A stretch of 64,000 nucleotides of DNA from a virus (IMGVR_UViG_3300037400_006004:42619-106618); one strand, 5' to 3'. Counted from the stretch's first letter, positions 18,999 to 64,000 are shown. A program made the numbers and translations. Notes: generated by a model from the sequence alone, not told the origin.

Positions 18999-19214
18999 AT
19001 GATTAGTAAGGAAGAATATTTAAGAAAAATTAAAAATTCCAAATATTATAAATATGCTGATGATAAAGAAGAAATACTAGCTGATGCTGAAAGAATATGG
19101 GAAAGACGTTATGAAAAAAATAAACAACATAATAAATTTGAAAGAAAATTAAAATCACCGATAACATATGTAAAATTACATAAAGCTAAAAATTTAGATG
19201 ATTTAGATATTTAA
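18999..19214 (+). CDS. small basic protein, paralog of the N-terminus of the 19913 ORF
   Basis: MISKEEYLRKIK...ILADA versus MISREEYLKRVK...ILADA. Confidence 0.75.
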   Translation: MISKEEYLRKIKNSKYYKYADDKEEILADAERIWERRYEKNKQHNKFERKLKSPITYVKLHKAKNLDDLDI

Positions 19215-19238
19215 TAATTTTAGAAAGGAATGATTTTT

Positions 19239-19898
19239 ATGAATTATAGAGATTTTTTAGTAGATAATTTAGAAAATGAAGGATTTTTAAATGAAGGAAA
19301 AGGTGACAGTAGAAGAAATAGACGAAAAGGACATAAGAACAAAAATAATAAACCTAATCCCACTCCTAAACCTACTCCTAAACCTACTCCTACTCCAAAA
19401 CCTACTCCTAAACCAAATCCTAAACCTACTCCTACTCCTACTCCAAAACCTACTCCTAAACCAAATCCTAATCCTAATCCTAAACCTAATCCCACTCCAA
19501 AACCTAATCCAAAACCAAATCCTAATCCAAATAAAACCAAAATAGAAAATGTAACTAAATCTAGTAAAGATGAAGATAAAAAGGGATTTAAAAAATGGAG
19601 TGAATTTTCAGATGAAGATAAACAAAAATTAAAGAAAGATGCAAAAGTAGCAGGAGCTATTCTTGGAGGAACTGCTTTAGCTAGTGTTGGAATTAATCAT
19701 ATTATAAAGAGACAGAATAAAGAATATGATGATGATGAAGCATTAACTAAAGAAGAAAAGAAAGAATTAAAAGAAGCATATGAATATTTATTTGAAAATT
19801 TCTCTGAAGTAGATGTTTCTATTTTAGAAATGTTAGATGAATATGATTTTATGGTATTAGATGAAATTTCAGAAGGTTATAACAGATTTGAAGATTAA
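19239..19898 (+). CDS. modular Lys/Pro-rich protein (putative internal head protein)
   Basis: Acidic leader ending [12 protein letters not shown] repeat, Gly/Ala helix, acidic tail with YLFENFSE and SEGY. Confidence 0.6.
19348..19530 (+). repeat. coding tandem repeat (KPTP/KPNP)n
   Basis: Degenerate 6/12-bp units (CCTACT, CCTAAA, CCTAAT, CCAAAA) encoding about 60 aa with Pro at every second residue. Confidence 0.95.
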
Positions 19899-19912
19899 GA
19901 AAGGAGATTATT

Positions 19913-20593
19913 ATGATTAGTAGAGAAGAATATTTAAAACGAGTTAAAGAATCTCCTAGATATCAAAGAACACTTAATAAACTTGAAAGAAAAAAAATAT
20001 TAGCAGATGCTAATAAAAAATATGATAGACGAATTGCTAGGATACAAAGAGAAGCTGAATTTGAAAAAGAATTAGAAAAAATGAATGAAGCTTTTATGGA
20101 AGGTTATTTAGATGGTTTAAGTAAATCCCAAGAACTCGATGAAGATCTTTTAGCTAGTATTGGTAGAAGATATGGAAAAGCTGGAGCTGTTGCAGATAAA
20201 GCTGTAGACTCGGTAAAATCTAAATTACCAAAAATCAAAAAATTGGAGATACTCAAACAACGCCAAAAGAAAAAGCCAAAAATTATAGATAGAGTTGTTG
20301 ATAAAGCGGCTAAACCATTAACTAATTATCATACTAAAAAAGCAGTTAATTCATATACTAAACGTCATGGTCATGCTCCAGATGATAAAGTTGTTGAAAG
20401 ATTCAAAAAAGGACAAGTTGCTCCTGCTACTAGAGCTGGTTTAAAAGGATTTGCAAAAGTAGATGCTGCTGCTTCATTAATTCCTGGTCCAACTTCCGCT
20501 TTAGGTCATGCTCCCATAATTGGTTTAGGAGTTGCTGATGAAATTAAAAAGAATAGACAAATGAAAAAAGCTAGACAAAATTTAAAAAAATAA
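19913..20593 (+). CDS. modular basic protein with FMEGY motif (putative internal head protein)
   Basis: AFMEGYLDGLSKSQELDE followed by a Lys-rich region and a hydrophobic Gly/Ala segment. Confidence 0.6.
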   Translation: MISREEYLKRVKESPRYQRTLNKLERKKILADANKKYDRRIARIQREAEFEKELEKMNEAFMEGYLDGLSKSQELDEDLLASIGRRYGKAGAVADKAVDSVKSKLPKIKKLEILKQRQKKKPKIIDRVVDKAAKPLTNYHTKKAVNSYTKRHGHAPDDKVVERFKKGQVAPATRAGLKGFAKVDAAASLIPGPTSALGHAPIIGLGVADEIKKNRQMKKARQNLKK

Positions 20594-20634
20594 ATAAAAT
20601 CCCTATAGAGTTGAACTCTATAGGGATTTTATTT
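20592..20634. terminator. bidirectional hairpin terminator
   Basis: About 21-bp perfect inverted repeat around CCCTATAGAGTT-G-AACTCTATAGGG between convergent genes. Confidence 0.85.
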
Positions 20635-20643
20635 TATTAATTA

Positions 20644-21297
20644 TCAATAATCATCAATCATTTGAGCACTATGTCTAAAATCATCAGAACGTTGTCCAGC
20701 TGTAGCAGAAATAGCACCTGCAATACTAGATAAACCACCTGTAATGGGAGCAGCTAAAATACCAACTGTAGCTTTAGTTCCCATATTCCTCTTACGTAGT
20801 CTATAGAATTTTGTAGCTTCTTTAACAAATGTATCTTTTTTAACTGGTTTTAAAGCACTTGATTTACAATATTTTACATATTTATTATATAGCTTTTCAA
20901 TTTTTGATTTATCTTTTAATTTGGAAGAAGCAACACCATAAGAAATTAATCCGGCAGATAACCAGTCTCCAGCAGTTGTATGATGCGCTAAATAATCTTG
21001 AGTTGAAGATCCTTCATTTAATTCTTGAATGGCATCATCATAACCTTCTAAAAAAGCTTCTTCTTTCATACCTAAAACTTTTTTACCAAATTCATAAGGA
21101 TTTTCTTTTCCTCGTTCAATCTTCTTTTGATTTGCTTTAGACATTTTATCAATTTTTCTTTTATCTCTAATTTCACGAAATTTTTCTTTTTCAAGCATCA
21201 TATCTGTGTCAAAATCAAACGTAGGTTTGTATTTCATTTTTTTTATTTCTAATAATGCATTCATATAACCTTCCATAAAAATTTCTTCATAAGTCAT
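20644..21297 (-). CDS. modular protein with two F(M/L)EGY motifs (putative internal head polyprotein)
   Basis: IFMEGYMNALLE and AFLEGYDDAIQELNE; YNKY...PV...F module; Gly/Ala-rich C-terminus; late motif at 21325-21338. Confidence 0.6.
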   Translation of the reverse strand: MTYEEIFMEGYMNALLEIKKMKYKPTFDFDTDMMLEKEKFREIRDKRKIDKMSKANQKKIERGKENPYEFGKKVLGMKEEAFLEGYDDAIQELNEGSSTQDYLAHHTTAGDWLSAGLISYGVASSKLKDKSKIEKLYNKYVKYCKSSALKPVKKDTFVKEATKFYRLRKRNMGTKATVGILAAPITGGLSSIAGAISATAGQRSDDFRHSAQMIDDY

Positions 21298-21344
21298 TTT
21301 ACTAACCTTCTTTCTATATAAATTTATAATAATAAGTTATTTAA

Positions 21345-22511
21345 TTATCTTTCATTATAAGCTTTATTAATTAATAATACAAAATAAATATAGCATGCTT
21401 TTCTATAAATAACTTTAGTAGCATCTCTTTCAGTATTAGCATATCTATTACAGTATTTAGTTAAAAATTTATCTAAAGTATTTTTGATATTAAGACTAAT
21501 ATCATTTTTACTATTAGATTTACTATAAGCACTTATCATATAAGTAACGAATTTTTGAGAGCCAAACTCATTTGAATTATTATTATCATTATAAATATAT
21601 AATTGAACCATTGATAATAATAAAATTCTAATAGATTCTAATTCATTATCTTTAATATTTTCAAGAGCTAATTTCATTACACTTTGTTCAGCTTTACAAA
21701 TACCACAAGCAGTTCTAAGAATAACTGGATCAATTCTAGTAGTATTAAATTTATTATAAGCTTTATTAACGATATTAACTAAATCAGCTGACATATTAGA
21801 AGTTTCGTAATAATTTTCTTCATCATTAGAATCTTGCTGAAGTTTAAGATATTTTTTATTATTAAAATCAGTCATATATTCATTAACAAATGATTTCATT
21901 TGGTTATTAAGTCTTGTACGAATAGCAAGAAGATAACTTAAAATATCCATATCATTTTTAGAATCTAAAGATTTCTTTTGTGTTTCATGAGCATTAATAA
22001 CAGTTGCAAATAACGCTTTAAAAACAGATTGATACTTTCTAAAGTAATATTTGTCTGAAACTCTATTAAAAGTAAATTGCATACAATCTTCATTTGGTAA
22101 AAATTTTTGGAAATATTTAGCATGAAGTGCAGCATACTGATATAGAGTAAGATACATTAAAGCTGCTTGTAAACCTACTTTATTATTAGTTAAATGATAA
22201 TAACGAACAAGATTAACCATTAAGAAGTTTAAAGGAAAGTTAACTTGATTGATAACACCATAACATTCTTTAGTCTTTTTAATTTTACCTACAACAGTAT
22301 CAATTTCATCTACAGAAATTTTAAATAAATCAAATGGATATTTTATATCATTTGGTGTAAAAAATAATCTTTTACTTGGTATATTATGAAAAAGTACTTC
22401 AGAATTTTTATCCATATACTTTTGTACATAACTTTCAAATTGCTTTGTAATAGCAGGACTTTCATTTGTCTTTAACATTGGAAAAATTTCATCATGAAAA
22501 AATGTAGACAT
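21345..22511 (-). CDS. hypothetical protein
   Basis: 388 aa helical ORF; SD GAGGTG; late motif at 22535-22548. Confidence 0.75.
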   Translation of the reverse strand: MSTFFHDEIFPMLKTNESPAITKQFESYVQKYMDKNSEVLFHNIPSKRLFFTPNDIKYPFDLFKISVDEIDTVVGKIKKTKECYGVINQVNFPLNFLMVNLVRYYHLTNNKVGLQAALMYLTLYQYAALHAKYFQKFLPNEDCMQFTFNRVSDKYYFRKYQSVFKALFATVINAHETQKKSLDSKNDMDILSYLLAIRTRLNNQMKSFVNEYMTDFNNKKYLKLQQDSNDEENYYETSNMSADLVNIVNKAYNKFNTTRIDPVILRTACGICKAEQSVMKLALENIKDNELESIRILLLSMVQLYIYNDNNNSNEFGSQKFVTYMISAYSKSNSKNDISLNIKNTLDKFLTKYCNRYANTERDATKVIYRKACYIYFVLLINKAYNER

Positions 22512-22590
22512 AATCTCACCTCTTTAATAAATAATATAAAGAATAGTTCTACTAAAAAAAAATGGGAAGGAATTACCCTTCCCATTTAGT

Positions 22591-22917
22591 TTACTCAAAA
22601 CCCCAGAACTTTCTCATCTGAGACTGAGTTTCGCATATTTCCAGTTCTACATCATTTTGACATAAGAACCTTACAATACTTCCCAAGAAGAATAAATCAT
22701 AATCTTCATAGGAAAACTCAGTATAACGAAATTCTTCGTTATACTGAGTTTTATATGTATTACTTGGACCGCCCCATCCACAAGCACTTTTCAAGAATGC
22801 TTTTACAATAGCATTATCACCATTGTAAAAGACTGAATATCCATGACTTGAGCAGTCAAAGCATTTTCCTTCAGGCTGCCGTCCAGCGGTCAGATCTACT
22901 ATGAGTCTTTCTTTCAT
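22591..22917 (-). CDS. hypothetical early protein
   Basis: 108 aa; SD AAGGAGG; ATGA overlap with upstream gene. Confidence 0.75.
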   Translation of the reverse strand: MKERLIVDLTAGRQPEGKCFDCSSHGYSVFYNGDNAIVKAFLKSACGWGGPSNTYKTQYNEEFRYTEFSYEDYDLFFLGSIVRFLCQNDVELEICETQSQMRKFWGFE

Positions 22918-23348
22918 ATAATTTCCTCCTTAATAATTTTATCATGAACTTCAATCTGCTCAATCATTAGACAGAAATAATGATGTATATAACTATAGGT
23001 ATTTCCATTTATAGATGTTCTAGGGCATATATCGACAATAGCTTTTTTATATTTATCATTTTCTCTTAAAGGATAAAATTTAGCTTTTGATAAATCTGTA
23101 ACATCTCTAGTAGTTCCATCTTTATGACATTTAGTTTTAATTTTAGTTAATTTTTTAATTTGTTTTAATAATATATCTTCAGATGAAAAATATAATTCAA
23201 AATGATTTTTTGTTTCATCAAAAATATCAATTGGTGAACAAGGTAAGCTCATCAATGTTTCAAGATTATCACATGAAGGCTTTATTTTATTATTATAAAG
23301 TTCTTCATAATAATACTCCGTTACTTTAAGTTTAAATATAGTAGACAT
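22914..23348 (-). CDS. hypothetical early protein
   Basis: 144 aa; SD GGAGG. Confidence 0.75.
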   Translation of the reverse strand: MSTIFKLKVTEYYYEELYNNKIKPSCDNLETLMSLPCSPIDIFDETKNHFELYFSSEDILLKQIKKLTKIKTKCHKDGTTRDVTDLSKAKFYPLRENDKYKKAIVDICPRTSINGNTYSYIHHYFCLMIEQIEVHDKIIKEEII

Positions 23349-23361
23349 TATTAACCCTCCA

Positions 23362-23832
23362 TTAATCTCTACTTTCTATTACAAAGTATTTAGCTTTATA
23401 ACTTTTTGCAAGCTTTCTTACTTCTGAAGTTTCTTCTTTAGTTTTACAAAAGATACTATAAAGATACACATTATCTTTAGAGGTAGGAACTTTAAGATAA
23501 GGAAGCTCTTTATCATTCATAATCTTATCAAATTCTTTATCATCAAAATTAGATGTAAGTTCAATCTTCCAAAGTTTATCTTTCCTTGACTTAACTTCAA
23601 TAACTTTAACTACATATACACCGATAAGATTACAAATAGCAACGATAGCTGCTTTCTTCCAAATAGGAAGATCACATGTCATATAAATAAGGACTACTGT
23701 ATACAACCCATAAGCCACTGCATTGACTAATGCAGCAGTAATAGGACTACCTTTTAATGTAATAATAGACTTACCAGTCTGAATAATTACATTAAATACA
23801 TTAAGTACTATAAAGATTGTTAATACACTCAT
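23362..23832 (-). CDS. membrane protein, UPF0316/DUF5698-like
   Basis: Three N-terminal TM helices (NVIIQTGKSIITLKG...AALVNAVAYGLY...NLIGVYV) plus a small soluble C-terminal domain; early motif at 23923-23935. Confidence 0.55.
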   Translation of the reverse strand: MSVLTIFIVLNVFNVIIQTGKSIITLKGSPITAALVNAVAYGLYTVVLIYMTCDLPIWKKAAIVAICNLIGVYVVKVIEVKSRKDKLWKIELTSNFDDKEFDKIMNDKELPYLKVPTSKDNVYLYSIFCKTKEETSEVRKLAKSYKAKYFVIESRD

Positions 23833-23979
23833 TTATCTTACCTCCTCAATATTTTTATTATTTTTTTCTACATCACTCATAAATATACCTCCATAATAAA
23901 AATATAGATTTTTACCATTAAAATAATATATACTTAAAAACCTATTATTATATATAATAAAAAGAAAGGAGTAACTTTT

Positions 23980-25968
23980 ATGATTTATGATTATAATACA
24001 AAGAATATAAGTTTCATAAAAATGGCTAAGCAATTAAAAGATAAAGGTGTTAAGAATTGGAATTTTATGTTAACTTTATATGATCCAAAGTTACAAGGAG
24101 TAGATCCTTATGACCCAGATCTTTCTATAGAAATGCAAGCAAGAATACAAAAAGAAGTAATGATTAATTATTGGTACTATATTCGAGAAGTTATTCGTAT
24201 TAATTCTACTGGTGGAGCTGTTTCATATGAACTTCATCTTGGAAATATGGCAATGCATTATATGCAATTAAAAAATATAGATGTTATTTTATGTTTACCC
24301 CGTCAGCACTTTAAAACTTGGAGTTCTGTTGTATGGTATTCATGGATTTATTTATATCAAGCAAAGAATTATACTATTATATTTAGTAATAAACAGTTAC
24401 AAGACTCACAAGAAAACTTAAAGCGTATTATGGATGTTATTGAAGTTTTACCATCATATTTAAAGAGTCATATGAATCCTAAATATGATACCGATAATAT
24501 TAACATGCTTAGAATAGCTGAGAATAATAATACAATTAAAGCATTATCTTCTCCTAAAGATGAAAAGTCTGCCGATAAATTAGGACGTGGTCTTAACATT
24601 CCTATCTTATGGTGTGATGAGTTTGCATTCTTAAACATGAATCAAGTTATGTATATGTCTGCAAGACCTGCATTAACTAAAGCATCTGAAGCAGCTAAAA
24701 ATGCTCATCAGCCTTACGGTATCACTATAACTACTACTCCAAATAACCTTGATGTTCCAGAAGGAAAATTCTGTTATGATATGATTCAAAAAGCAGCTAA
24801 ATTTACTTTTGCTTTTTATGATTGGACTGATGATCAATTATGTGATTATCTAGATAAAAATTCTGGTAATAACTATGTATTCATTGAATATCATCATACT
24901 GATCTTGGTAAAGATGATAAATGGTTAAAAGCTCAAATTAGAGCACTTGAAGGAGATATGGCTAAAGTTAAAAGAGAAATTCTTATTGAATGGACTTATG
25001 CTTCTAATATGTCTATCTTTACAGAAGAGCAGTTAGATGACATGTCTAAATATGTAAAACATGAAAATCTTCAAACTATTTATATAGACAATTATAAAAT
25101 TGATGTATTAGAACCATTTAACAATCTTATGTATAAAAACTGGTGTCTTTCTATAGATATCGGTGGAGGACTTGGTAGAGACTATTCAGCTTTTTCTCTT
25201 ATAGACCCAGTGTCTCTTAAACAAGTTATGAAATTTAAGAATAATAATATCTCAGTATTAGACTTTGCTAATTTAGTAATTAAATTTGTAAAGACTTATG
25301 TACCTAATGCAGTTATTATTCCAGAGCGTAACTTTAACTCTGCTTTTATAGAATACATTCAAAAATCAGATTTTGCTAAAAATCTTTACTATACTTCAAC
25401 TGAAGATAAAGATTATACACAAAAGAAAATTAAAAAGACTTCTATATTTAAAGCAGGAAAAACAACTAGTGTTGAAACTCGTAGATATGGTTTCCAAACA
25501 GATAAAGATACAAGAAAGTATATGACTGAAGAAATATTATTTATGATTGCTAATCAAAGACCAGAATTAATAAATAATGATGAACTTTTTGATGAAATAA
25601 GAAAGCTTATTAGAGAAAAATCGGGTAAGATTAATCATATGAATGGAGAACATGATGACTTAACTATGAGTTACTTAATTGGTTTATATGTATTAACAAA
25701 TACTACTAATAGAAATAAATTCTTTAAGAATATTTCAGATACTCCAATTACTGCAGATAAGCCAAAAGAAATTAATAAGCAAGAACAACAATTTAAGAGA
25801 ATTGCTAAATATAACGATCAAGAGGTTATGAATAATATTATAAATAGTAATTTAGATAGAGAACTACTTGAAATGCAAAGACTTATAGATGAAAAAAATA
25901 GTAAAATTGAAACTGATAGTAAAAAGAGGCATATGAAAAATATATTTAGTATGAATGGAAGTTTATAA
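23980..25968 (+). CDS. terL: terminase large subunit
   Basis: Walker A-like LPRQHFKT, GRG, Walker B LWCDEFAF, coupling motif TTTP, RNase H-like nuclease SIDIGGGLGRDYSAF and HDDL. Confidence 0.9.
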   Translation: MIYDYNTKNISFIKMAKQLKDKGVKNWNFMLTLYDPKLQGVDPYDPDLSIEMQARIQKEVMINYWYYIREVIRINSTGGAVSYELHLGNMAMHYMQLKNIDVILCLPRQHFKTWSSVVWYSWIYLYQAKNYTIIFSNKQLQDSQENLKRIMDVIEVLPSYLKSHMNPKYDTDNINMLRIAENNNTIKALSSPKDEKSADKLGRGLNIPILWCDEFAFLNMNQVMYMSARPALTKASEAAKNAHQPYGITITTTPNNLDVPEGKFCYDMIQKAAKFTFAFYDWTDDQLCDYLDKNSGNNYVFIEYHHTDLGKDDKWLKAQIRALEGDMAKVKREILIEWTYASNMSIFTEEQLDDMSKYVKHENLQTIYIDNYKIDVLEPFNNLMYKNWCLSIDIGGGLGRDYSAFSLIDPVSLKQVMKFKNNNISVLDFANLVIKFVKTYVPNAVIIPERNFNSAFIEYIQKSDFAKNLYYTSTEDKDYTQKKIKKTSIFKAGKTTSVETRRYGFQTDKDTRKYMTEEILFMIANQRPELINNDELFDEIRKLIREKSGKINHMNGEHDDLTMSYLIGLYVLTNTTNRNKFFKNISDTPITADKPKEINKQEQQFKRIAKYNDQEVMNNIINSNLDRELLEMQRLIDEKNSKIETDSKKRHMKNIFSMNGSL

Positions 25969-26007
25969 AATAACAATTATTAAATTATATGGAAAGGTGG
26001 TTTTATA

Positions 26008-26901
26008 ATGTCATATTTAAAAAATTTTTTAGAAGGTTATATGGATGGTATTAGTGAATTAGATGAATCAGTTCATACAAAAGTTGCAAAAAAGACTAAA
26101 AAATATATAATTCAACAAGTTGAAGATGATGATAGCCATTTATCAAAAGGCGGAGATATACAAACATATGATATTGGAGATAAAATAAAAGATAGTGACC
26201 ATACTTGGAGAGGAACTACTCATCCGATTAGTGTTGAACATGATGCTAAAGATAAAAAAAGATATACTACTACGTATCAAGTTCCAGATAAATTAAAAGA
26301 ATCACACATAAATATAGGAAAACGAGATTTAAAAAGTAAAGGTATAGCTCAAGCAACAGTAGGACACGAAGTAGGACATGGTAGATTTGCTTCTAAGTTT
26401 GCAAAATCAGTATCTTCTGGAAGTGCAGATCCCATATTAGCAAGTGTAGCAGCCAAAAGAGAATATGAACGACAAAAAAATGGAAAAGTTCATAATCATG
26501 CAAATACTATTGAAGTACAGAGATCTTCTAACTTCAGTGAATATTATGCAGATCAAAATGCAAGAGAAGCTTTAAGACGAGCTGATCCAAAACATTCAGA
26601 TATTAAAATGAGAAGATATTTTAAACATGTTAGCAAATTAGATAAATCTGAAAGAAAATTACCAAATGCAAAAGCAATAAAAGCAAGTAGAGCTTTAGAT
26701 TCAGTAGATAGAAAACAAGCTATGAGAGAAGTTGCTAAATTACGTGCAGAAGCAGTAATGAAAAAGAAAGATCCTAGACAAATGATCAAATACAAACAAG
26801 GAATGGCTGGCGGTAAAAAAGCTTATGAAAAAGAAGTTAAAAAACGTAAATTACAAAAGAAATTAAGAGAAGAGTTATTAAATTATTATTTAGAAAATTA
26901 A
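26008..26901 (+). CDS. zincin-motif protein with FLEGY leader (putative packaged metalloprotease)
   Basis: VGHEVGH (HExxH) plus downstream SEYYADQNA, as in M48/M56-like gluzincins; N-terminal NFLEGYMDGISELDE. Confidence 0.6.
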   Translation: MSYLKNFLEGYMDGISELDESVHTKVAKKTKKYIIQQVEDDDSHLSKGGDIQTYDIGDKIKDSDHTWRGTTHPISVEHDAKDKKRYTTTYQVPDKLKESHINIGKRDLKSKGIAQATVGHEVGHGRFASKFAKSVSSGSADPILASVAAKREYERQKNGKVHNHANTIEVQRSSNFSEYYADQNAREALRRADPKHSDIKMRRYFKHVSKLDKSERKLPNAKAIKASRALDSVDRKQAMREVAKLRAEAVMKKKDPRQMIKYKQGMAGGKKAYEKEVKKRKLQKKLREELLNYYLEN

Positions 26902-26911
26902 TTTTATTAAA

Positions 26912-26945
26912 AAAAGACTATAGGGAATATTCCCTATAGTCTTTT
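26912..26945. terminator. bidirectional hairpin terminator
   Basis: Perfect palindrome AAAAGACTATAGGGAATATTCCCTATAGTCTTTT between convergent genes. Confidence 0.85.
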
Positions 26946-27160
26946 TAAAAATCAGCAAAATATTTTAAATAAGGGTAATAAAAACTTTCCTTATTTATTG
27001 TTTTTAATATTTCTTTTTGTTTATTTATTCTTATTTCAGTTACTCCACATCTTTCATTAATAGTATAAAATAATTTTCCATTAATTATTTCATCAGCTTC
27101 TTTTAAAAGTTTTTCATCTTTTTTATTATTTTTATAGCATTTTAATAATTCATAAAACAT
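26945..27160 (-). CDS. hypothetical early protein
   Basis: 71 aa; SD AAGGAGGTG; early motif at 27197-27209. Confidence 0.7.
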   Translation of the reverse strand: MFYELLKCYKNNKKDEKLLKEADEIINGKLFYTINERCGVTEIRINKQKEILKTINKESFYYPYLKYFADF

Positions 27161-27244
27161 AAACTTACACCTCCTTATTATTTATATTTCATATAAATAA
27201 TATATATTTAACCCTTAAGGATTAAATCCTTAAGGGTTTTTTTA

Positions 27245-27754
27245 TTAATATTTAGAAGTTCTTTTTACATTTATACTATTTCCAACTTTAACTTCATGAC
27301 TTATTTCTTTTGGTCCATTTTCTAAGTTATTTTTCTTTCTAACTTTTTTATCAGCTGCATCTATTACAGTAGTACCAGCTTTAACTGCTGTAATACCAGC
27401 GAGTGTAATACCAGCTTTACCTAAAGTCTTTTTTAAATCATGTGCAGTTTCTTGTCTTTCACACCATCTTTTAAAAGGTAAAAAATCTTTTCCTTGTTTT
27501 TTACGTTTTTTTACATATTCATCATATTTGAGTTTAAGTGCATCACTATCTAATCTTTTATCCTTTTTAAAAAGACCTTCGCATAATTCAGTATAATATT
27601 GATCTAAATTATCAAAATCTTCATTTAATTCATTATAAACAGCTATTTCATCTAATTCATAAGCTTTTTCCATTAATGTATCAAACCATTCATTAAATAC
27701 AGCTGTTCCACCGTTCATTCTATAATCGACAAAACCTTTTTTAATTTTATTCAT
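27245..27754 (-). CDS. modular protein (acidic LxE leader, YDEY...W module, Gly/Ala helix)
   Basis: ELDE, ELNE and ELCE sites, then KYDEYVKKRKKQGKDFLPFKRW and LGKAGITLAGITAVKAG. Confidence 0.6.
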   Translation of the reverse strand: MNKIKKGFVDYRMNGGTAVFNEWFDTLMEKAYELDEIAVYNELNEDFDNLDQYYTELCEGLFKKDKRLDSDALKLKYDEYVKKRKKQGKDFLPFKRWCERQETAHDLKKTLGKAGITLAGITAVKAGTTVIDAADKKVRKKNNLENGPKEISHEVKVGNSINVKRTSKY

Positions 27755-27768
27755 ATTAATTCACCTCT

Positions 27769-28683
27769 TTATTTTAAATAGTAATATAATTGATTAATAT
27801 ATTTATCAATAGTATTCCATTCTACTAAAAAACTAGTATTACATAATACATTATATTTAGCATTAATTGGAACATCACTAAATATAAATAATCTATCTTC
27901 AATATATAAAAGAGCATCAAAATATTGAAGTATCTTTTTATAATTGTCTTTAATATTTGGCATAGGTTTAATATAAATATCAAAACCTTCTTTACTTCTA
28001 TAATCAAAATTTTCAACAATACTAAATTTCTTTAAAGCATAATTAGCTGAAGCAGGACTATCACTTTGAATTATAATTTTACCAACATAACCTTTTCTAG
28101 GATAACCTTTTTCTTGTGATGTATAATTTAGATTAATAATATTTATAAGATTTCTGTTAAATTTATCAAGATGATATTTTTGTAAATATTCTATGATATC
28201 ATCTCCATCAAATTTAGACTCATTAGCTTTTAAAGAAAATACTACCATTGTATCATGAGGAATGAGATTAGTATTAAGCATATATATTAATATACTATTT
28301 AATATAGCTGGATTCATAAATCCTTTAATACAAAGAGATTCATTTTCTCCACCAGTATTTCCTGTTGTTAAATAAGTTTTTCTTTCTTTAGTAGGAAATT
28401 CATAAGTAATACTTTCACATTCTTCTTTTTGTATAGAGTATTTATTATCAATAGGACAAATAATAATACTTCTTAAAGATTGCATTGAAATATTTTTTGC
28501 TCTTACTGTAATTAACCTATTTTGAATATATTCAAGTGTATATTTATTCAAATCAATATAATCTAAAATATTCTTAAATTTTGGCACATCCATAAAGTAT
28601 TTATCTCGTACACTTGTATACATACAATTTTTATTAAAATCGTTCAAAATAGTGAAGAACTTATCTTTATTAATAGTAAACAT
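27769..28683 (-). CDS. hypothetical protein, possible degenerate M20/M28 peptidase fold
   Basis: Start moved to MFTINK (SD GAGGTG; late motif at 28710-28723); weak pattern similarity only. Confidence 0.45.
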   Translation of the reverse strand: MFTINKDKFFTILNDFNKNCMYTSVRDKYFMDVPKFKNILDYIDLNKYTLEYIQNRLITVRAKNISMQSLRSIIICPIDNKYSIQKEECESITYEFPTKERKTYLTTGNTGGENESLCIKGFMNPAILNSILIYMLNTNLIPHDTMVVFSLKANESKFDGDDIIEYLQKYHLDKFNRNLINIINLNYTSQEKGYPRKGYVGKIIIQSDSPASANYALKKFSIVENFDYRSKEGFDIYIKPMPNIKDNYKKILQYFDALLYIEDRLFIFSDVPINAKYNVLCNTSFLVEWNTIDKYINQLYYYLK

Positions 28684-29041: not shown

Positions 29042-29300
29042 ATTTATACCTCCTTTTATTTAATGTCTTATTTCAAAATTATAATATATATTTAATCATA
29101 ATATTTAATACTCTTTTTGTACAAACATTTTTTTATAAAATTATAAAGATATTTATTAAAAATGATTACTAGATGAATTTAAGCTAAATTTTGAAGAAAG
29201 GAAAGATTGTCTAGTTTAGTAATCAAAGATGTCTTGGCTTAGGCATTATATAGTTTATAATCTATATATTTTTATTCAAATGACAATCAAAGTGATTAAT

Positions 29301-32300
29301 ATGGCTAGTGAAATTACTTTAAAATATCTTCACCCTTCTATAAAGACATATATCACTACTGAGAACTATAAATATGACACTTCTGTTAGGAGAGAAGTTC
29401 TCTTTGTGGCAGACGTCTTTGATCATGGTAAAGATAATGTATTACAGGAAGTAAATACTCTTAGTGAATATTTATTTAAGTATGGTACTCCTAATCTTAA
29501 AAAGTTCGGTCAAGCTGGTTATAACGTTGAAAGATGGTTAACTAATGGTGGTTCTGCTGTTATTATGAGACTTCTTCCTGAAGATGCTTCTTATGCACAT
29601 GCAGTACTTAATATTCAATATAAGAATGCAACTAATGGTAAAACTGTTATAGATGCAAATGGTAATGATACTAAAATTAATGATGTTTATCTCAGACCTT
29701 TAGTAGCATATATTGGTGTTAATAATACTTCCGAAAAACTCTTAGAAAGTGAATTAGCTGAAGATCGTACAGGCTATCCTACTACAGATGGTTATATTGA
29801 TAACTTTATTTTTGCAGTATATCCAGAAGGAAGAGGTGAATATTACAACGATCTTGGTTTTAGAATTCGTTTAAATCCTTCTTATGATGGAGTTCTTACT
29901 TCCAGAGTTTATACCTTTGAAGTTATTAGATATACTTCTGACTCAACTTTCGATATCATTGATGGACCATATTTTGTAACATTTGATCCTGATGCAATTG
30001 ATCCTAATAGTCAAAAGTCTATGTTTATTGAAAATGTTGTTAATAGTTATTCTGATTATATTAAAGTTAAGTTTAACACAGATAATTATATTAAGCTTGC
30101 TTCTGTTATCAATGATGAAGTTGATCCTTATATTATTGATGTTATTAGTGGTCAGTCTAGAATTCTTCCTAGCGGTGAAAGAGAAACTTATTTTAGTACT
30201 GTTACTAATAAAGATGAAGATGTCCATGTTTCCTTAAGAAAATATTCTTCTAATGGAATTGCTCTTCAGGAAAATGGAGATTATATTTTAAATATTTCAA
30301 ATAATGATGAAACTACTTCTGATATTGTTGATATTGCTGATAATTCTCGTAGAGTTATTTATAATAATCAAAAATATGTAACTGATTATATGAGAGGTTA
30401 CTATAACTGGTTAATTCAAGACAGAATTCCACAAAATCTTAATAAAATTATCGCTGGTAATATTGAAAGCGGCTATTTAAATATGGGTGGTCTTCTTTTA
30501 GATAAAGTTGAAAACCTTATTTATGCTAATGAAAAGAACTCTGATCTTTATACTTATTCTTATGATAATGCGGAATTTTCTTCTAAATATGTAGGTAGAA
30601 AAACTTCTGAAACCGTAGCTCAAAATGCAAATAATGCTTGGTATCTTAGAACACAAGAGATTATTAACCCAGGCTTAAAAAATAAAGAAGGTAAATATGT
30701 TGGTAGTAAAATAGGTGGAGTTGTAACTACTGGTTATGAAAATGGAGACCAAGTATTTACATCTACTTCAGAAATGGCTGCAACAATTACACCTGATGGA
30801 TATATTGAAAAGACTAATCAGCATTTAATTAGTTATTATCATAATTTCATGAAGTATATTGAATTTGTAACTAATTATGACGTTTACAATAATTGTGGTT
30901 TTGTAATTTCAGAAGATTATCTTAATGCAGATAAATATTTTGAATCAGTTGACGATGAAGCTCCATTATATGCAATTTATTCTAGTAATGGTAGTACTGA
31001 TCTTTATAAGAATATTTATCATTTAGATAATGGTAATTTAGAAACTATTAAGAAAGAAAATTTCTTAAATGAAGGATATACTTCTATTTTTGACATGGTT
31101 CTTAAAAATCTCTACGGTGATAAAATTGTTGAAAATGGAGGAACTAGAACTGCTGAAGCATTTTGGAGTCCAGTTGGTACTGCTGGTATTGGTGAAGCAC
31201 CAGAAAATGCATTTAGTTATGCTAAAGAAGATGAGAATAAAATAGTTCTTTATCCAATGTTTATAGATGATACCTATACAGATAATGATTTATATATTCC
31301 AATTATTAATCTTAATACTTATAATGAAGATGGAATTATCAATGTATTAGGAGATTATATTAAAGTCGTTGATATAGTTGGTAATACTAGAATTCAACCA
31401 ATCAAAGGAACTACTTTAAGTGCTGGTAGTGTTGCATCTTCAAAATATTTAAGACCATATATTTTAGATTATCTTTATAATATTTCAACAGAACGTTACA
31501 ATGATAACGGAGTTCCTGCTGGATATACTGATAATTATTGCGTTATTAATACAGCTAAACCAGATACCTCTAAGATAAATATTGAAATTAATACAGATAT
31601 AACTCAAAATATGACAGATTTAGGTAATTTCTATTCTGTTGATGGTTATTATAAATTCTTATATAATATTGTAAACCATTTTGATGGTGATATTAATTAT
31701 AATGACTATTTAATTTTAGTTGATGGTAATAATGGAGTAATAGCTGATGTAGAAAATTATAATGATTATAAAGCTAAAAAAGATAACTTAAATTATATTG
31801 AAATTAAATTAACTGACGTTATTAAGTTTGTAAATGCAATAATTGCAGACACAATTAACGTTGAAGCAAGCACTGGTAGGGTTTATTATCCAAATTCTAC
31901 AAATAAATTTAATATGGTAAATATTTCTCTTACCGCATTTGATATGTGTTATGATAAAATAATTGGACCACCTGAAAAGATTCTTAAAACTAATGTTGGA
32001 AGAATTATTACTGATTTTTATTTTAAGAAAGATAATATTGGTAGTGGTATAAATGTATTTAACTCTGTTTTTGATGAAAGACTTAAAAATGGAAAATTAA
32101 CTAATTCATTTAATAAAGTAAACTCTTATGCTTCTTTAATTAGTAAAGAATTAGACGGAAAGGGTAAAGATACTATTATAGACGATATTACTACTAAGAA
32201 AATTGAAAATCTTGATTATAGTGATTATTCATTAACTACTATGCTTAATGTTTTCGTTGGTGGTTTTGAATCTATTGTTAATAATATGGGTTCTGTTACA

Positions 32301-34304
32301 GATTACTCTAATTATTCTTCACTTAAATATTTAATGAAGACTGTTAATAATAATCTTGATCTTAGATCAACTTATTTAACTCTTCTAAATGTACACAAGA
32401 ATAATATTCTTGATTTAAGTACTGATTTAGCTAAGGCTAATGCATCTGTTATTCTTGGCGAAGAAACTCTTGAAACACTTTACTCTGCAATGGATACTGT
32501 TGTAGCTGAAACTAACTATTTAATAACAAATATCATCTTTACAATTCTTAATAAGACATATACTATTTATGATCTTGAAACAATGTATAAAGCTACAGAT
32601 GGTACAACTCCATATACTTATTATTTTTCTGATAATATTCGTCCTGATGGAGAACTTAAATATAATGAAATTGAACAAATAGTCGATCCATTAGGTATTA
32701 ATAACAATCTTAATAATTATGGCAAGAAAGATGACAATACTCGTTATGTTGGTATTCTTCCACTTCTTGAAAAGATTCTTATTAATATTACAGGTCAAAA
32801 TCATTATGGAGAGAATAGAGACCCAATTTATGGTGGTCAAGCTCTTATCTCTATATATGATGATATTAAGAATGGTTATGTTCTTGGTGGTCTAACACAA
32901 GAAAGATATGAAACTATTTATAAAATTCTTTCTGAAAGTTTAGCTCAACTTATTGATATTCATAGTATTATTAACGTTTTAGTTAATGAAAAATATATAA
33001 CTGATATTATTAATACTTTAATTGGTACTATTGATATTAAAAATACTATTATTAAATATAATGGCTCAACTTATTCCGTTAATACTCTTTGGGATTTCTA
33101 TAATTCTGATGCGAATAATGGACAGCTTACTCAAACAGATGTAGTTAATCTTATTAACAATTCTCTTAAGATAAGCTTAAATACTCAGCCATTACCACTT
33201 AATAATGAAGAAGCAGATAGCGATCCAGTAATCAACTATCCTTATTCATGTAAAACTGATATCGAAGATACTATCAACATAGCTAAAGATAATAAAGATA
33301 TCGTACAAAATAATATTAATAAACAAGATAGAGTACTCGCTTCTCTTAATACTCTCTGTTATGATAACCTTGTTACTAATGTTACTGCTCCATTAAGTTT
33401 AATGGAAGGTTCTGATGGATCATTCGCTTATGATGATTCTACAACTGCAGCTCTTAAGGCTCGTCAGCATCGTATTAATGATATTCGTATCAAGGCTTAT
33501 AAGGGTACTTGGAATGAAGATGTTCTTAATAAGGATCTCTTCGAGTTTGATCATATCCTTGATGCTAACTATGAAGATCCAGTTAAGAATGCTATCGTTA
33601 CTCTTGCAAGAGATGAAAGACAAGACTTCTTCTACTGGGCTGACACTAAGATTCAAAATACAGTTCAAGATGCAATTGATTGGAAAACTGGCTTTACTAA
33701 TCAGACTTACTTTATGTCTATAATTTCTCAGTCTCAGGTTTGGTACGATGAATATACTTCTAGAAATATTAATCTTACTTCTACATATCTAATTGCAGAC
33801 ATGCTTTGCAGACATATCGACAGTTATGGTATTCATTATCCTATGGCTGGTTCTAGACGTGGTGTAGTTGGCGGATTTATTTCTAATGACTGGTATCCAA
33901 ACGAAGAGCAGAAAGAAAAGCTCTATAAGAATAAGATTAACTATCTTGAAAAGGATATTACAACTATTCGTATAGGTTCTCAAAATACTAATTATCCTAC
34001 TGGTCCTCTTGGACAGATTAACAATATGCTCGTTCTTCTTAGAATTAAGAGAACTGTTGAAAAGATTGCTAAGACATATCAGTTCGAATTCAATACTGCT
34101 GATACTAGAAGTGCAATGGCTGCTGAAATCAATGTTTACCTCGGTAACTGGATTAATAACGGTGCATGTACTGTTGCTACTGCTACAGTTTATGCTTCTG
34201 ATTATGATATCATCCAGAAGATTGTTCGTGTAGACGTAACACTTCAGTTCACTGGAGTTATTGAAAGAATCGTAATTAATATAGACTGTCCTGCATCTAT
34301 CTAA
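29301..34304 (+). CDS. tail sheath protein with very large insertion
   Basis: N-terminal YLHPSIKTYI and KYGTPN; C-terminal PMAGSRRGVV, LYKNKINYL and RVDVTLQFTGVIERIVINI sheath motifs; 1667 aa from MASEIT. Confidence 0.9.
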   Translation: MASEITLKYLHPSIKTYITTENYKYDTSVRREVLFVADVFDHGKDNVLQEVNTLSEYLFKYGTPNLKKFGQAGYNVERWLTNGGSAVIMRLLPEDASYAHAVLNIQYKNATNGKTVIDANGNDTKINDVYLRPLVAYIGVNNTSEKLLESELAEDRTGYPTTDGYIDNFIFAVYPEGRGEYYNDLGFRIRLNPSYDGVLTSRVYTFEVIRYTSDSTFDIIDGPYFVTFDPDAIDPNSQKSMFIENVVNSYSDYIKVKFNTDNYIKLASVINDEVDPYIIDVISGQSRILPSGERETYFSTVTNKDEDVHVSLRKYSSNGIALQENGDYILNISNNDETTSDIVDIADNSRRVIYNNQKYVTDYMRGYYNWLIQDRIPQNLNKIIAGNIESGYLNMGGLLLDKVENLIYANEKNSDLYTYSYDNAEFSSKYVGRKTSETVAQNANNAWYLRTQEIINPGLKNKEGKYVGSKIGGVVTTGYENGDQVFTSTSEMAATITPDGYIEKTNQHLISYYHNFMKYIEFVTNYDVYNNCGFVISEDYLNADKYFESVDDEAPLYAIYSSNGSTDLYKNIYHLDNGNLETIKKENFLNEGYTSIFDMVLKNLYGDKIVENGGTRTAEAFWSPVGTAGIGEAPENAFSYAKEDENKIVLYPMFIDDTYTDNDLYIPIINLNTYNEDGIINVLGDYIKVVDIVGNTRIQPIKGTTLSAGSVASSKYLRPYILDYLYNISTERYNDNGVPAGYTDNYCVINTAKPDTSKINIEINTDITQNMTDLGNFYSVDGYYKFLYNIVNHFDGDINYNDYLILVDGNNGVIADVENYNDYKAKKDNLNYIEIKLTDVIKFVNAIIADTINVEASTGRVYYPNSTNKFNMVNISLTAFDMCYDKIIGPPEKILKTNVGRIITDFYFKKDNIGSGINVFNSVFDERLKNGKLTNSFNKVNSYASLISKELDGKGKDTIIDDITTKKIENLDYSDYSLTTMLNVFVGGFESIVNNMGSVTDYSNYSSLKYLMKTVNNNLDLRSTYLTLLNVHKNNILDLSTDLAKANASVILGEETLETLYSAMDTVVAETNYLITNIIFTILNKTYTIYDLETMYKATDGTTPYTYYFSDNIRPDGELKYNEIEQIVDPLGINNNLNNYGKKDDNTRYVGILPLLEKILINITGQNHYGENRDPIYGGQALISIYDDIKNGYVLGGLTQERYETIYKILSESLAQLIDIHSIINVLVNEKYITDIINTLIGTIDIKNTIIKYNGSTYSVNTLWDFYNSDANNGQLTQTDVVNLINNSLKISLNTQPLPLNNEEADSDPVINYPYSCKTDIEDTINIAKDNKDIVQNNINKQDRVLASLNTLCYDNLVTNVTAPLSLMEGSDGSFAYDDSTTAALKARQHRINDIRIKAYKGTWNEDVLNKDLFEFDHILDANYEDPVKNAIVTLARDERQDFFYWADTKIQNTVQDAIDWKTGFTNQTYFMSIISQSQVWYDEYTSRNINLTSTYLIADMLCRHIDSYGIHYPMAGSRRGVVGGFISNDWYPNEEQKEKLYKNKINYLEKDITTIRIGSQNTNYPTGPLGQINNMLVLLRIKRTVEKIAKTYQFEFNTADTRSAMAAEINVYLGNWINNGACTVATATVYASDYDIIQKIVRVDVTLQFTGVIERIVINIDCPASI

Positions 34305-59355: not shown

Positions 59356-59368
59356 AAATAATTCCTCC

Positions 59369-60769: not shown

Positions 60770-60997
60770 TTAGAAGCTGAATAATCTTGTGAGAAGATCT
60801 GCAGTATAACCTTCACCACAAATCTTATCGAAAGCCATCATTGCTTCAGTTTGGCGGACTGGATTAGCCCACCAGACAGATCCATCTTTCCTCTTGACGG
60901 TAACGTGACCCTGGAGACGATGCTTCAAGTGTTCTTCAGACTTCTTATCTGAAGAAATTACCTTAGTAATGAAAACAAAAGTCATCTTATTATTCAT
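60770..60997 (-). CDS. hypothetical early protein
   Basis: Start moved to MNNKM (SD GAAGGAG); early motif at 61073-61085. Confidence 0.7.
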   Translation of the reverse strand: MNNKMTFVFITKVISSDKKSEEHLKHRLQGHVTVKRKDGSVWWANPVRQTEAMMAFDKICGEGYTADLLTRLFSF

Positions 60998-61201
60998 AAG
61001 ACTCCTTCCCCAACACAATAAGCGTTGTACCATATTTACAGCCTGGGTGGGCATAATATATTTATCACAATTATAATATATATTTGGATATGTATTTAGA
61101 TTCGGTTCATACAAATTCAAATTAAAATAAAAATACTAGGTTCAACAAAGAAATATCATAGATTAATTATAATCTAAATTTTAACTATGGAGGAAATTTT
61201 T

Positions 61202-62491
61202 ATGTTATTTGATCTTATTAATGAAACCATTCAGAAGGAAAAGCTTGGCGAAGAGATTTCATTTACTCCTACATATTCTAGTGGTATTGATGTAATGGAC
61301 TATCGTAATGGTAGAATTGAAAAAGGAGAGGTTAATGTAGGATTTGACGGTGGTAGAATTATCACTGTTATTGGTAAATCTGGTTCAGGTAAGACTTCTT
61401 TAGCTATTAAGATGGCTTGCTCTATTGTTGAGCCATATGAAAATGGTAATATCTTCCATTATGATTTTGAAAGAGCAACTAATATTTCTAGAGTAAAGAC
61501 TATTTCTGGTTGGTCTGATGAAACACTTGAGAAGAAGTATAAGAATCTTCAGAGAAATATTTATTCTGAAAGTATTTATAAAATTGTAAAGGCTATTGAT
61601 AAGCTTAAGAATAAGCCTGAAAACTATGATGAAATTAAAATTGATTCTGGAAAGAAGGATGAAGAGGGTAATCCTATTTATGTATTACCTCCTACAGTAA
61701 TTTTATTAGATAGTTGGGCGCTTTGTATCCCTGAAGATATTTCTGAAGAGGAAAAGTTAAGTGGACAGATGTCTGCTACTTCTATTGCAAGAATTAATAA
61801 TAGTATTATTAAGAGACTTGCTGGACCTCTTGAAAGAGGAAATATTATTCTTATTGCAATTAATCATATTACTCAGAAGATTGAGATTAATGCTTTTGCT
61901 AAGACACAGGCAGCTATTAATTATCTTAAGCAGGATGAGTCTATTCCTGGTGGTTCTTCAATTCTTTATCTTGCTAATAATATTATTAGAGTAACAACTT
62001 CTACAAAGCTTGATGAATCTGATAGTTATGGCGTTAAGGGATTTATGGTTAAGGGTGAATTCGTTAAGTCAAGAAGTAATGAAGCAGGAAGACAGTTTGA
62101 AATGGTATTTGAACAGTCAACAGGATTTGACAATATTCTTACTAATCTTGCTAATTTTAAAGAATTAAAACTTCTTAATGGTTCTCCTAGAGCATATTAC
62201 CTTGAAGGTTGTCCTGATATTAAGTTTACACTTAAGACTTTTAAAGAAAAGTATCTTGAAAGTAAAAAGTTAAGAGCTGAAGTTGATAGACTTGTTAAGG
62301 AAAATTATATAAAGTTTATTCCAAATTCTGAAGCTTATATTGACGAAGATGTAATTAGTAGTGAATCTGAAGATACTGAAGATATCGAACTCGTAGAATG
62401 TGTTGATGAAGAAAATGATGTTTGGGTTGGTTCTGATGGTAATTACTACACTAGTGATGGTGAAGAAGTAGAATACGAAGAAGAAGAATAA
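61202..62491 (+). CDS. recA: RecA/UvsX-family recombinase
   Basis: Walker A GKSGSGKT, YDFE, Walker B ILLDSW, INHI, PGG and KSR; acidic C-terminal tail. Confidence 0.9.
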   Translation: MLFDLINETIQKEKLGEEISFTPTYSSGIDVMDYRNGRIEKGEVNVGFDGGRIITVIGKSGSGKTSLAIKMACSIVEPYENGNIFHYDFERATNISRVKTISGWSDETLEKKYKNLQRNIYSESIYKIVKAIDKLKNKPENYDEIKIDSGKKDEEGNPIYVLPPTVILLDSWALCIPEDISEEEKLSGQMSATSIARINNSIIKRLAGPLERGNIILIAINHITQKIEINAFAKTQAAINYLKQDESIPGGSSILYLANNIIRVTTSTKLDESDSYGVKGFMVKGEFVKSRSNEAGRQFEMVFEQSTGFDNILTNLANFKELKLLNGSPRAYYLEGCPDIKFTLKTFKEKYLESKKLRAEVDRLVKENYIKFIPNSEAYIDEDVISSESEDTEDIELVECVDEENDVWVGSDGNYYTSDGEEVEYEEEE

Positions 62492-62497
62492 TTTTGT

Positions 62498-62529
62498 AAA
62501 AGGCATATGGATTTTTCCATATGCCTTTT
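62498..62529. terminator. hairpin terminator
   Basis: AAAAGGCATATGGA/TCCATATGCCTTTT followed by a T-run. Confidence 0.85.
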
Positions 62530-62604
62530 TTAAACTTTTTATTATAAATAATTAGCATTCAAACTATATTATTATAAATATATTAATAAAAGTAGGTGAT
62601 ATAA

Positions 62605-64000
62605 ATGAATTATTATGACGAAGACATTCTTCTAGAAAAGAAAGAAGAAGATGATGAGGACGATGGTTTACTAAGTCATGGTATAAAAAAAGAAAAGAAA
62701 AAATCTAAAAAAGATCAATTATATGATGATTGGAATAATAAAAGAATTATGAGCGGTAAAGCTAAAGGTTCTAGAGCTTTATATGATAAAGAAGAAGAAG
62801 TTAAAAATACTATTAAACGAGTAGCAAAAGGTGCAGCTTTAATAGGTGGAGCTGTAGCAGCTCATAATATTCATCAAAAATCTAAAGATCCAGTAGCATA
62901 TGAACAAAAGAAAGCACAACATCAACAAGAAAAGAATCAAGCTGCTTTAATTAGAGGACAATCTCGTGCAGATGCAGCAGAAGTTAGAGCTAGAAATACA
63001 ACTGCTGTTAGACTTTCTAAAAAAGAAGGTATTAGAGGAGCTAAATTTGATGCTAAAACAGATTCTATTTATAGAAAACAAAATAGACATAATGATAGGC
63101 AAGCTGCATATAATGATGCTGGAAGAAAACCAGGATTTTTTGCTAGACATGTTCAGGGATATAATGAAAATTATATCCAATACTTATTTGAGAATTTTAC
63201 AGAAGAAGAGATTTCTAGATATCTTATTTTATCTGAATCTAAAGAAGATAAAAATGCTTATAAAGAATATTGTAGTAGAATGAAACAAATTGATTCTAAA
63301 CCTTTATCTTATAAGGAATGGAAAGAAAAGAAATATGAAAAGAAAAAGAAGCTTAGAAGAATTATTGCAGCTGGAGCTCTTGCTGGAGTTGGAGCAAATG
63401 AATATAGACATTATAAAAAAGGAAATCCTAATTTAAAAAATAGAATAAGAAATTATAAGACAAATGATTTTGCTAGAAGAAGTACTTTTAAAAATGATCA
63501 AAATAGTAGGATATTTCAAAATAATTCAGATTATCGAAGAGCAAATCTTAGAGAAGAATTTGATAGTATTTCTAAAGATCAATTAGCTGCTTATTTAGAA
63601 ATGATTAATAATGAAGATTTTATGAAAAATTCTTATAATCGTTATTGTGTTATGGCAGAAGCTAAAGGATTAATTCCATTAGATGAAAATGCTTTTGAAG
63701 AAGCTAAAAAGAGAATTTCTGCTTATTCTAAGGCTGCTATAGATGGTATTAAAGCTGAGAAAAAAAAGAAAGAAGCTGAATTAAAGAAAAAAGAAGAAGA
63801 AAATAAAAAGAAAGAAGCTGAAAAAGCTAAAGCTGAAAAAGAAAAGATTTCTAAAATGTCTATAGAAGAAAAAAAAGAATACCTTAGAAAAAAGAAAAAG
63901 AAAGAAGAAGAGGAAGAAGAAAAGAAACAAGATGCTCGTGACCTCAAGCAAACCTTTAAGCAATCTTTTATAAGAGGTTCAGGTGAACAATTAGGTAAAT
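62605..64000 (+). CDS. modular Lys-rich polyprotein (partial; runs off window; absent from ORF track)
   Basis: SD TAGGTGA; open frame MNYYDEDILLE...GEQLGK (at least 465 aa) with YLFENFTE, two YxxY...PL modules and Gly/Ala helices. Confidence 0.85.
   Translation, partial: MNYYDEDILLEKKEEDDEDDGLLSHGIKKEKKKSKKDQLYDDWNNKRIMSGKAKGSRALYDKEEEVKNTIKRVAKGAALIGGAVAAHNIHQKSKDPVAYEQKKAQHQQEKNQAALIRGQSRADAAEVRARNTTAVRLSKKEGIRGAKFDAKTDSIYRKQNRHNDRQAAYNDAGRKPGFFARHVQGYNENYIQYLFENFTEEEISRYLILSESKEDKNAYKEYCSRMKQIDSKPLSYKEWKEKKYEKKKKLRRIIAAGALAGVGANEYRHYKKGNPNLKNRIRNYKTNDFARRSTFKNDQNSRIFQNNSDYRRANLREEFDSISKDQLAAYLEMINNEDFMKNSYNRYCVMAEAKGLIPLDENAFEEAKKRISAYSKAAIDGIKAEKKKKEAELKKKEEENKKKEAEKAKAEKEKISKMSIEEKKEYLRKKKKKEEEEEEKKQDARDLKQTFKQSFIRGSGEQLGK

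Follow-up and report, generated by a model that had tools for sequence, protein, structure and literature searches.

The 64,000-bp window analysed here covers bases 42619–106618 of a 106.6-kb IMG/VR viral contig (IMGVR_UViG_3300037400_006004), which is rated 41% complete and has a GC-content of about 27%. By sequence, it comes from an uncultured AR9/PBS1-like jumbo phage: the large terminase shares 42–46% identity with those of the Bacillus phages BpSp, AR9 and PBS1 and of Staphylococcus jumbo phages. The window also encodes RNA polymerase beta, DNA polymerase, ligase and, at 29229, a 1691-amino-acid tail sheath protein. An initial annotation had singled out six genes (19239, 19913, 20644, 26008, 27245 and 62605, numbered by their leftmost coordinate) as sharing short acidic modules on differing payloads, and all six open reading frames (ORFs) and every quoted motif were found in the sequence. 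Segments of the type F[ML]EGY[MLD][DN] occur at residue 61 of the 19913 product, residues 7 and 82 of 20644 and residue 7 of 26008; a fifth EGY copy lies outside the window (contig 32046–32438, minus strand). These F[ML]EGY segments proved to be worn copies of a portable 18-residue tag.

The motif is far clearer in two complete relatives used for comparison with this phage's fragment (G0), namely G1 (265,109 bp) and G2 (305,865 bp), whose core proteins are syntenic with those of the window and 60–90% identical to them. The consensus of the unit is Y-E-x-x-F-L-E-G-Y-Y-D-A-L-x-E, with the core EGYYDAL-x-E; in an alternative form, the pattern reads [YL]-[ED]-[ED]-[AI]-[YF]-[LM]-E-G-Y-Y-D-A-L-x-E over about 18 residues. 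E-G-Y is invariant in 29 aligned copies from the three genomes. The tag is predicted to be a helix with one aromatic/Leu face and one face of E, D and E. A tag profile (domain E below 0.01) matched 4 proteins on the 106-kb fragment, 16 in G1 and 10 in G2, with several weaker tag-like copies beyond this threshold. In both G1 and G2, the tag ranks first among shared terminal 7-mers, and the DNA pattern for F-x-E-G-Y gave 9 matches in G2 versus 1 control match. Given these profile, 7-mer and DNA-pattern counts, the sharing of the motif is not a matter of chance.

When 5.8 billion proteins were searched through a word index with a tandem-tag profile, 68 more came up, all unnamed or generically named; the metagenomic contigs that carry them are as long as 306 kb. 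Exact DNA-pattern scans located the tag on 36 viral-contig and 35 metagenome stretches and essentially nowhere in 185,579 prokaryote genomes, where the matches were a singleton Lachnospiraceae DUF4190 protein and two high-GC proteins hit by chance. The motif was found in no paper. The DUF4190 protein is a chromosomal membrane protein of a Lachnospiraceae metagenome-assembled genome (contig L092, 609–1142, minus strand) that ends in F-M-E-G-F-M-E-G-Y-Y-D-A-L and an acidic aromatic tail. Its gene neighbours encode oligopeptidase F, a metallo-beta-lactamase-fold protein and an ABC-2 permease, and the only others found were near-identical copies. The tag-like end could be due to chance, could have been captured from a phage, or could hint at the host group.

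Profile matching identified 149 tags on 91 distinct proteins with payloads of many unrelated types, in agreement with the initial annotation's proposal of one acidic module on otherwise unrelated basic proteins. In each genome, this portable acidic helix is carried by 15–20 otherwise unrelated small basic late proteins. Sixty-two tags are N-terminal (starting at residues 2–12) and 29 are C-terminal (no more than 20 residues from the end of the protein). The other 58 are internal; most of these either form the second half of a tandem pair or come after an N-terminal module. Spacers rich in D, E and Y lie between tandem copies, and many proteins are tagged at both ends. In an AlphaFold2 (AF2) model of the tagged protein P0010 (13-sequence alignment), the two tags were low-confidence helices that did not pack on the payload, while the payload of about 90 residues folded confidently, with a predicted local distance difference test score (pLDDT) of about 78–89.

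The acidic segments had been described as ending in L-x-E, and this held for the tag at large. Among the 124 tags with enough downstream sequence, 97 end in [LI]-x-E at a fixed register; such a site lies within 14 residues in 110 of the 124, against a shuffled mean of 28.6 and maximum of 43. Thirteen of the 27 tags without the fixed site have one a few residues further on. At the C-terminus, [LI]-x-E directly precedes the tag in 4 of 29 cases. The fixed register is suggestive only, since it fits a protease site and an acidic helix stripe alike.

The abrupt switch from acidic to basic sequence was likewise borne out. Each tag contributes a net charge of about −5, and the other non-payload segments total −398 across 2211 residues. 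Payloads, defined as the longest tag-free stretch of each protein, have a median isoelectric point (pI) of 9.9, with 89% above 9, compared with medians of 5.7 and 5.5 for comparable-sized proteins of G1 and G2. Gly/Ala-rich uncharged segments are real and enriched, being present in 41/91 family proteins versus 20/229 and 17/278 genes genome-wide, and most of those 20 and 17 genes are themselves family members or neighbours of them. However, these segments are weakly hydrophobic: 12 of the 91 proteins reach a 19-residue Kyte–Doolittle mean of 1.6, and the six window proteins score 0.8–1.7. The description of the payloads as membrane-active is therefore unsupported. A short element, Y..Y...G..PLS...W, recurs across many family members, and a second payload type ('NPFP-IIGGGD') is a domain of about 90 residues with a predicted alpha/beta fold (AF2 pLDDT about 80–89) and no PDB match at E ≤ 0.001 in a fold search. 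Apart from weak winged-helix hits, Pfam and PHROG gave no family for the tagged proteins, which showed no homology to known inner-body or ejection families; none of the six window proteins reached the threshold for any family in either database.

A protease of the T4 gp21 type, which the cleavage proposed at the outset would need, is encoded in both complete relatives: each has a Peptidase_S77 (gp21-family) gene scoring above the curated cut-off, with tagged paralogues alongside. Three G1 paralogues with C-terminal tags (61286, 61984 and 62535) immediately precede the protease gene and share its orientation. The G2 protease gene is followed by a series of related basic proteins with Gly/Ala segments, among which 238422 carries a canonical tag and 236351 a tag-like motif. 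Proteases of the gp21 family cut after Glu at x-X-E motifs (PMC5694885). Within the first ~88 residues of the capsid protein, three L-x-E sites are conserved in common by G1, G2, AR9 and BpSp; this is consistent with, though not proof of, an L-x-E specificity of the protease in this lineage.

A second motif, YLFENF[ST]E, is present in the 19230/19239 and 62605 proteins and had been assigned to the same system. It turned out to be a separate element, conserved internally within the 62605 family. In G1 and G2, the 62605 orthologue immediately precedes the major capsid gene and has the same orientation. The 62605 protein is a candidate scaffold or core-type protein. In BpSp, gp196, which is abundant in the virion (PMC4870245), occupies this pre-capsid position, as does the virion protein gp114 in AR9. 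Homology of the 62605 family to gp196 or gp114 was rejected (profile-profile probability 0.1), so the likeness is a positional analogy only.

Early and late promoter consensus sequences have been published for AR9 (PMC5312081). In the phage studied here, early-like TATATATTAT and late-like AAC[AT]-N4-6-TTAT motifs recur 30–45 nt upstream of start codons. When promoters were inherited along operons, the family genes were divided into 21 late, 1 early and 8 unclassed, against a background of 170 late and 203 early in the three genomes. Placement of the family in late-type units thus holds for 21 of the 22 classifiable genes. The strict AR9 late motif AACA-N6-T[AG] failed as a mark of the family, and the variant AAC[AT]-N4-6-TTAT succeeded.

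Tagged genes form the plastic part of an otherwise conserved map: they are replaced or recombined at the same sites, while core genes are kept. Payloads are exchanged at syntenic positions, and genes are split or fused at tags, as a mix-and-match system would be expected to show. Modules encoded by individual tagged genes in one genome can form a single protein in another, where tags or L-N-E mark the joints. G2_70229 combines modules found as separate genes in the window phage, and one G1 protein has a C-terminal tag that is missing from its orthologues in the window phage and G2. This turnover around a conserved tag matches the pattern at T-even internal-protein loci, where the targeting sequence alone is conserved (PMC3012670). 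Separately, convergent gene pairs were observed in G1 (146306–147260, L032) and G2 (141985–143062, L016), in which the promoter and the first ~50 codons, encoding tandem tags, are identical inverted copies; they are possible substrates for inversion or payload exchange.

Table 1. Features of the tagged-protein genes and their surroundings (window coordinates).
Feature	Position	Strand	Description
Late-type promoter-like motif AAC[AT]-N4-6-TTAT	18237–18249	+	43 nt upstream of virion-protein gene start; putative activity
Virion structural protein, AR9 gp111 homologue	18271–18987	+	phrog_18911, E 1.6e-72; 45% identity to AR9 gp111
Stand-alone 'MIS-K/R-EEYL' N-terminal module	18999–19214	+	71 amino acids; matches residues 1–39 of G2_70229
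Modular protein 19239	19239–19898	+	Second-type acidic N-terminal leader MNY-R-D-F-L ... L-x-E; basic K/P/T/N repeat
19239, Gly/Ala segment	19647–19694	+	
19239, FENF element	19791–19802	+	
19239, acidic tail	19872–19880	+	Weak EGY
19913	19913–20593	+	MISREEYL module, tag, then strongly basic payload
19913, tag	20081–20134	+	
20644	20644–21297	-	Two tags; winged-helix-like module at about residues 125–175
20644, tags	21238–21291; 21013–21066	-	
20644, Gly/Ala-rich tail	20695–20745	-	
20644, own late-type motif	21326–21338		
26008	26008–26901	+	N-terminal tag on 297-amino-acid payload
26008, tag	26014–26067	+	
26008, HEVGH	26365–26379	+	
27245, worn family member	27245–27754	-	Acidic N-terminal part; Y..Y...G...P...W module; short Gly/Ala/Thr-rich hydrophobic segment at about residues 110–125
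27245, L-C-E-G	27575–27586	-	
Late-type promoter-like motif	62562–62575	+	43 nt upstream of 62605 start codon
62605	62605–63999	+	465-amino-acid protein running off contig end; worn acidic N-terminal leader; long K/E-rich C-terminal region
62605, FENF element	63187–63198	+	
62605, Gly/Ala segments	63361–63396 (one of them)	+	

Within the window, the gp111 homologue anchors an operon carrying three of the listed genes (18280 > 18999 > 19239 > 19913), so that 18999, 19239 and 19913 follow it in one late unit; the motif ahead of it resembles the AR9 late consensus AACA-N6-TA/G (PMC5312081). The genes 20644 and 62605 have late-type motifs of their own. The 'MIS-K/R-EEYL' module, free-standing in 18999, precedes the tag in 19913 and G2_70229. 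The 19913 protein as a whole has 56 K/R against 29 D/E. The 19239 protein has no BLAST orthologue in G1 or G2; its K/P/T/N repeats (KPTP/KPNP) extend over about 80 residues (19290–19540) and give rise to spurious long ORFs in other frames. The products of 19239–19898 (+) and 17783–18199 (−) share their last four residues, R-F-E-D, which may be chance.

Close relatives of 20644 have one tag and are without its 75-residue insert. The winged-helix-like module gave weak matches to Pox_D5, RFX, Cdc6_C and a primase C-terminal domain, and the AF2 model of the 20644 protein was all-helical with low confidence (mean pLDDT 51), too poor for a fold search. The 27245 protein is a worn member of the family, and its orthologue in G1 (138698–139093) carries a canonical tag.

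Gene 26008 lies after the terminase gene, at a site where G1 has an unrelated 164-amino-acid protein tagged at both ends. It had been proposed to encode an enzyme cargo, and an HExxH motif is indeed present; HEVGH and a downstream S-E-Y-[YF]-A-D are kept in P0076, the only relative of this payload. However, no Pfam family and no PDB sequence matched the payload, and its Atlas structural neighbours (M78-, M48- and SprT-like, template modelling score below 0.5) are weak zincin-like leads. P0076 (491 amino acids) itself looks like a natural fusion, in which an HExxH domain resembling that of 26008 is joined to a tag and to two payloads, each encoded in G2 by a tagged gene of its own; the last joint lies exactly at L-N-E. 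It comes from a single 1.7-kb contig, for which an assembly artefact is possible, and was not found when looked for in IMG/VR.

Megablast of 18999–28000 gave no match, and tblastn of the 20644 and 26008 proteins gave none against 50,697 isolated-phage records. Both the tag profile and the DNA pattern were absent from AR9 and BpSp. For AR9, phmmer of all family proteins against six-frame ORFs returned nothing below E 0.002, and a reduced-alphabet 7-mer count revealed no analogous terminal tag.

We consider that the tag has about an even chance of being a capsid-targeting propeptide removed by the head protease. Late in infection, it would attach small basic proteins to the prohead core during assembly, and the charge of the tag and of the D/E/Y-rich spacers would offset the basic payload. 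The Peptidase_S77 head protease would then cut after the Glu of the tag-ending L-x-E; the acidic pieces would leave, and the basic payloads would stay with the packaged DNA, probably to be ejected into the host. Payloads in this scheme would include winged-helix-like modules, Gly/Ala-rich segments and the HExxH domain. We infer docking, cleavage, packaging and ejection of the tagged proteins from their genes and genomic context. Several points weigh against such a role. The L-x-E coincides with the acidic i, i+4, i+8 stripe of the predicted helix, so its conservation need not imply cleavage. The initial annotation regarded the segments as leaders, which suits the 62 N-terminal tags; the 29 of 149 at the extreme C-terminus would, however, stay attached after a cut at L-x-E. 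Tag and payloads have no detectable counterpart in AR9 and BpSp, the relatives with virion mass spectrometry. The S77 gene is not on the 41% fragment, which does not cover that region, and one chromosomal Lachnospiraceae DUF4190 membrane protein has the same terminal motif.

Tags at either terminus, in tandem and often at both ends suit multivalent docking better than a leader peptide. They could thus belong to an uncleaved docking or oligomerisation helix, a short linear motif with a single hub protein or further tags as its partner, that serves a late complex other than the capsid interior, for example a membrane-associated assembly, egress or lysis complex of small Gly/Ala-helix proteins. 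The Gly/Ala-rich hydrophobic segments of ~45% of members are in line with such a complex, as is the motif on the bacterial membrane protein. Nevertheless, we find this explanation unlikely: most members are without a true transmembrane-grade segment, many payloads are purely hydrophilic and basic, and the clustering by the head protease and capsid gene, together with the fixed L-x-E, would be left unexplained. The nearly balanced charges of tag/spacer and payload admit yet another interpretation, in which the acidic tag is an intramolecular pro-region masking toxic basic or hydrophobic peptides used in lysis, host killing or competitor killing, with no capsid packaging and with removal by any protease. 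Late expression and the Gly-zipper-like segments of some payloads would agree with it. Masking, however, creates no need for an E-G-Y that is invariant across ~20 unrelated payloads, or for a strict terminal position; the modelled tags do not pack on the payload, and folded, non-peptide payloads would not be accounted for. These features render a masking role distinctly improbable.

It is very unlikely that the tag is functionless, whether as a remnant of ancestry or as a recombination handle kept for gene shuffling. The identical inverted copies of promoter and leader in G1 and G2, and the splitting and fusing of genes at tags, would be natural for such a handle. Yet E-G-Y stays invariant in 29 tags even though the core proteins of the three genomes differ by 10–40%, and the charge pattern and terminal placement are maintained. 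The codons of the tag vary (GAA/GAG, GGT/GGA/GGC), and conservation is therefore at the protein level.

For the tag as a capsid-targeting propeptide, the nearest known parallel is the capsid targeting sequence of T4 (CTS; MKTYQEFIAE), which is carried by IPI–III and Alt and is processed by gp21. T4 internal proteins are highly basic and lose a leader of roughly 10 residues, removed by gp21 (PMC8442874). Common to both systems are a short terminal peptide on unrelated small basic or enzymatic proteins, a Glu-ending site for a gp21-family protease, and hypervariable payloads behind a conserved tag. The likeness is one of logic, and we infer packaging and cleavage in the present case. By eye, N-terminal copies (M-T-Y-E-E-I-F-M-E...) loosely resemble MKTYQEFIAE, over 9–10 residues that are too short for statistics. 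In contrast to the CTS, the tag is longer, has another sequence, is also placed C-terminally or between modules, and is often in tandem with acidic spacers; it is carried by 15–20 genes per genome versus about 4, in an AR9/PBS1-like rather than a T4-like lineage.

The head, inner-body and ejection proteins of phiKZ, 201phi2-1 and SPN3US (protease gp175/gp245) belong to a related lineage with split multisubunit RNA polymerases. There, too, paralogous head-protein families lie near the protease gene and acidic propeptides are removed after Glu; SPN3US gp47 exemplifies a mature protein that starts with a hydrophobic segment. Their propeptides, however, are mostly over 100 residues long and protein-specific, unlike the portable 18-residue tag, and the P3 residue is small, in S/A/G-X-E or A-X-E motifs (PMC5694885), rather than Leu/Ile. 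No sequence similarity of the tagged family to these proteins was detected in Pfam and PHROG profile searches. Cargo-loading peptides of encapsulins, and the C-terminal helices by which phage scaffolds bind the coat, share with the tag a short terminal helix, N- or C-terminal, that docks cargo inside an HK97-fold shell. This comparison is only an analogy, with no encapsulin and no sequence relation here, and binding of the tag to the shell is hypothetical; by the same analogy, the protease-adjacent proteins with C-terminal tandem tags could have a scaffold-like role. A more elaborate scheme is offered tentatively, as a doubtful possibility: the EGYYDAL helix may act as a bidirectional docking tag that ties about 20 cargo proteins to these protease-adjacent, tandem-tagged, scaffold-like proteins, working in multiple copies and forming a self-assembling internal body of interchangeable components that is resolved by the protease. 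If so, the cargo-loading logic would be more general than the T4 N-terminal leader and reusable for engineering.

New here are the AR9-like lineage and a tag that can stand at either end of a protein. Should the tag act as a signal for loading the head, phages of this AR9-like group would package about 20 kinds of small basic protein along with their DNA, including DNA-binding-like modules and a putative metalloprotease. The fast turnover of cargo between close relatives would then be what injected factors for anti-defence or takeover are expected to show. The T4 internal-protein principle would extend to a distant jumbo-phage lineage, with tags acting from either terminus, and a simple sequence rule would allow the virion cargo of uncultured giant phages to be predicted. 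Foreign proteins might also be packaged with the tag as a handle.

Several further features of the window were recorded. The ORF at 44170–45762 was considered as the capsid gene and rejected, as it encodes a polymerase-like protein; the capsid gene lies just past the contig end. The large terminase gene (23980–25968) is uninterrupted in the window. Its G1 and G2 orthologues align from residue 220–268 onward only, as separate ORFs, and the AR9 terminase gene is a join of five pieces; this pattern suggests insertions without a counterpart in this phage. Four small genes at 22591–23832 and 26945–27160 stand between conserved neighbours and have no counterpart in G1 or G2; among them, the 23362–23832 product looks like a multi-pass membrane protein, and the 26945 gene sits behind an early-type promoter motif. 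Finally, the ORFs 35339–36160 and 37578–39200 (span 35339–39200) correspond to one 823-amino-acid protein in the G2 orthologue.

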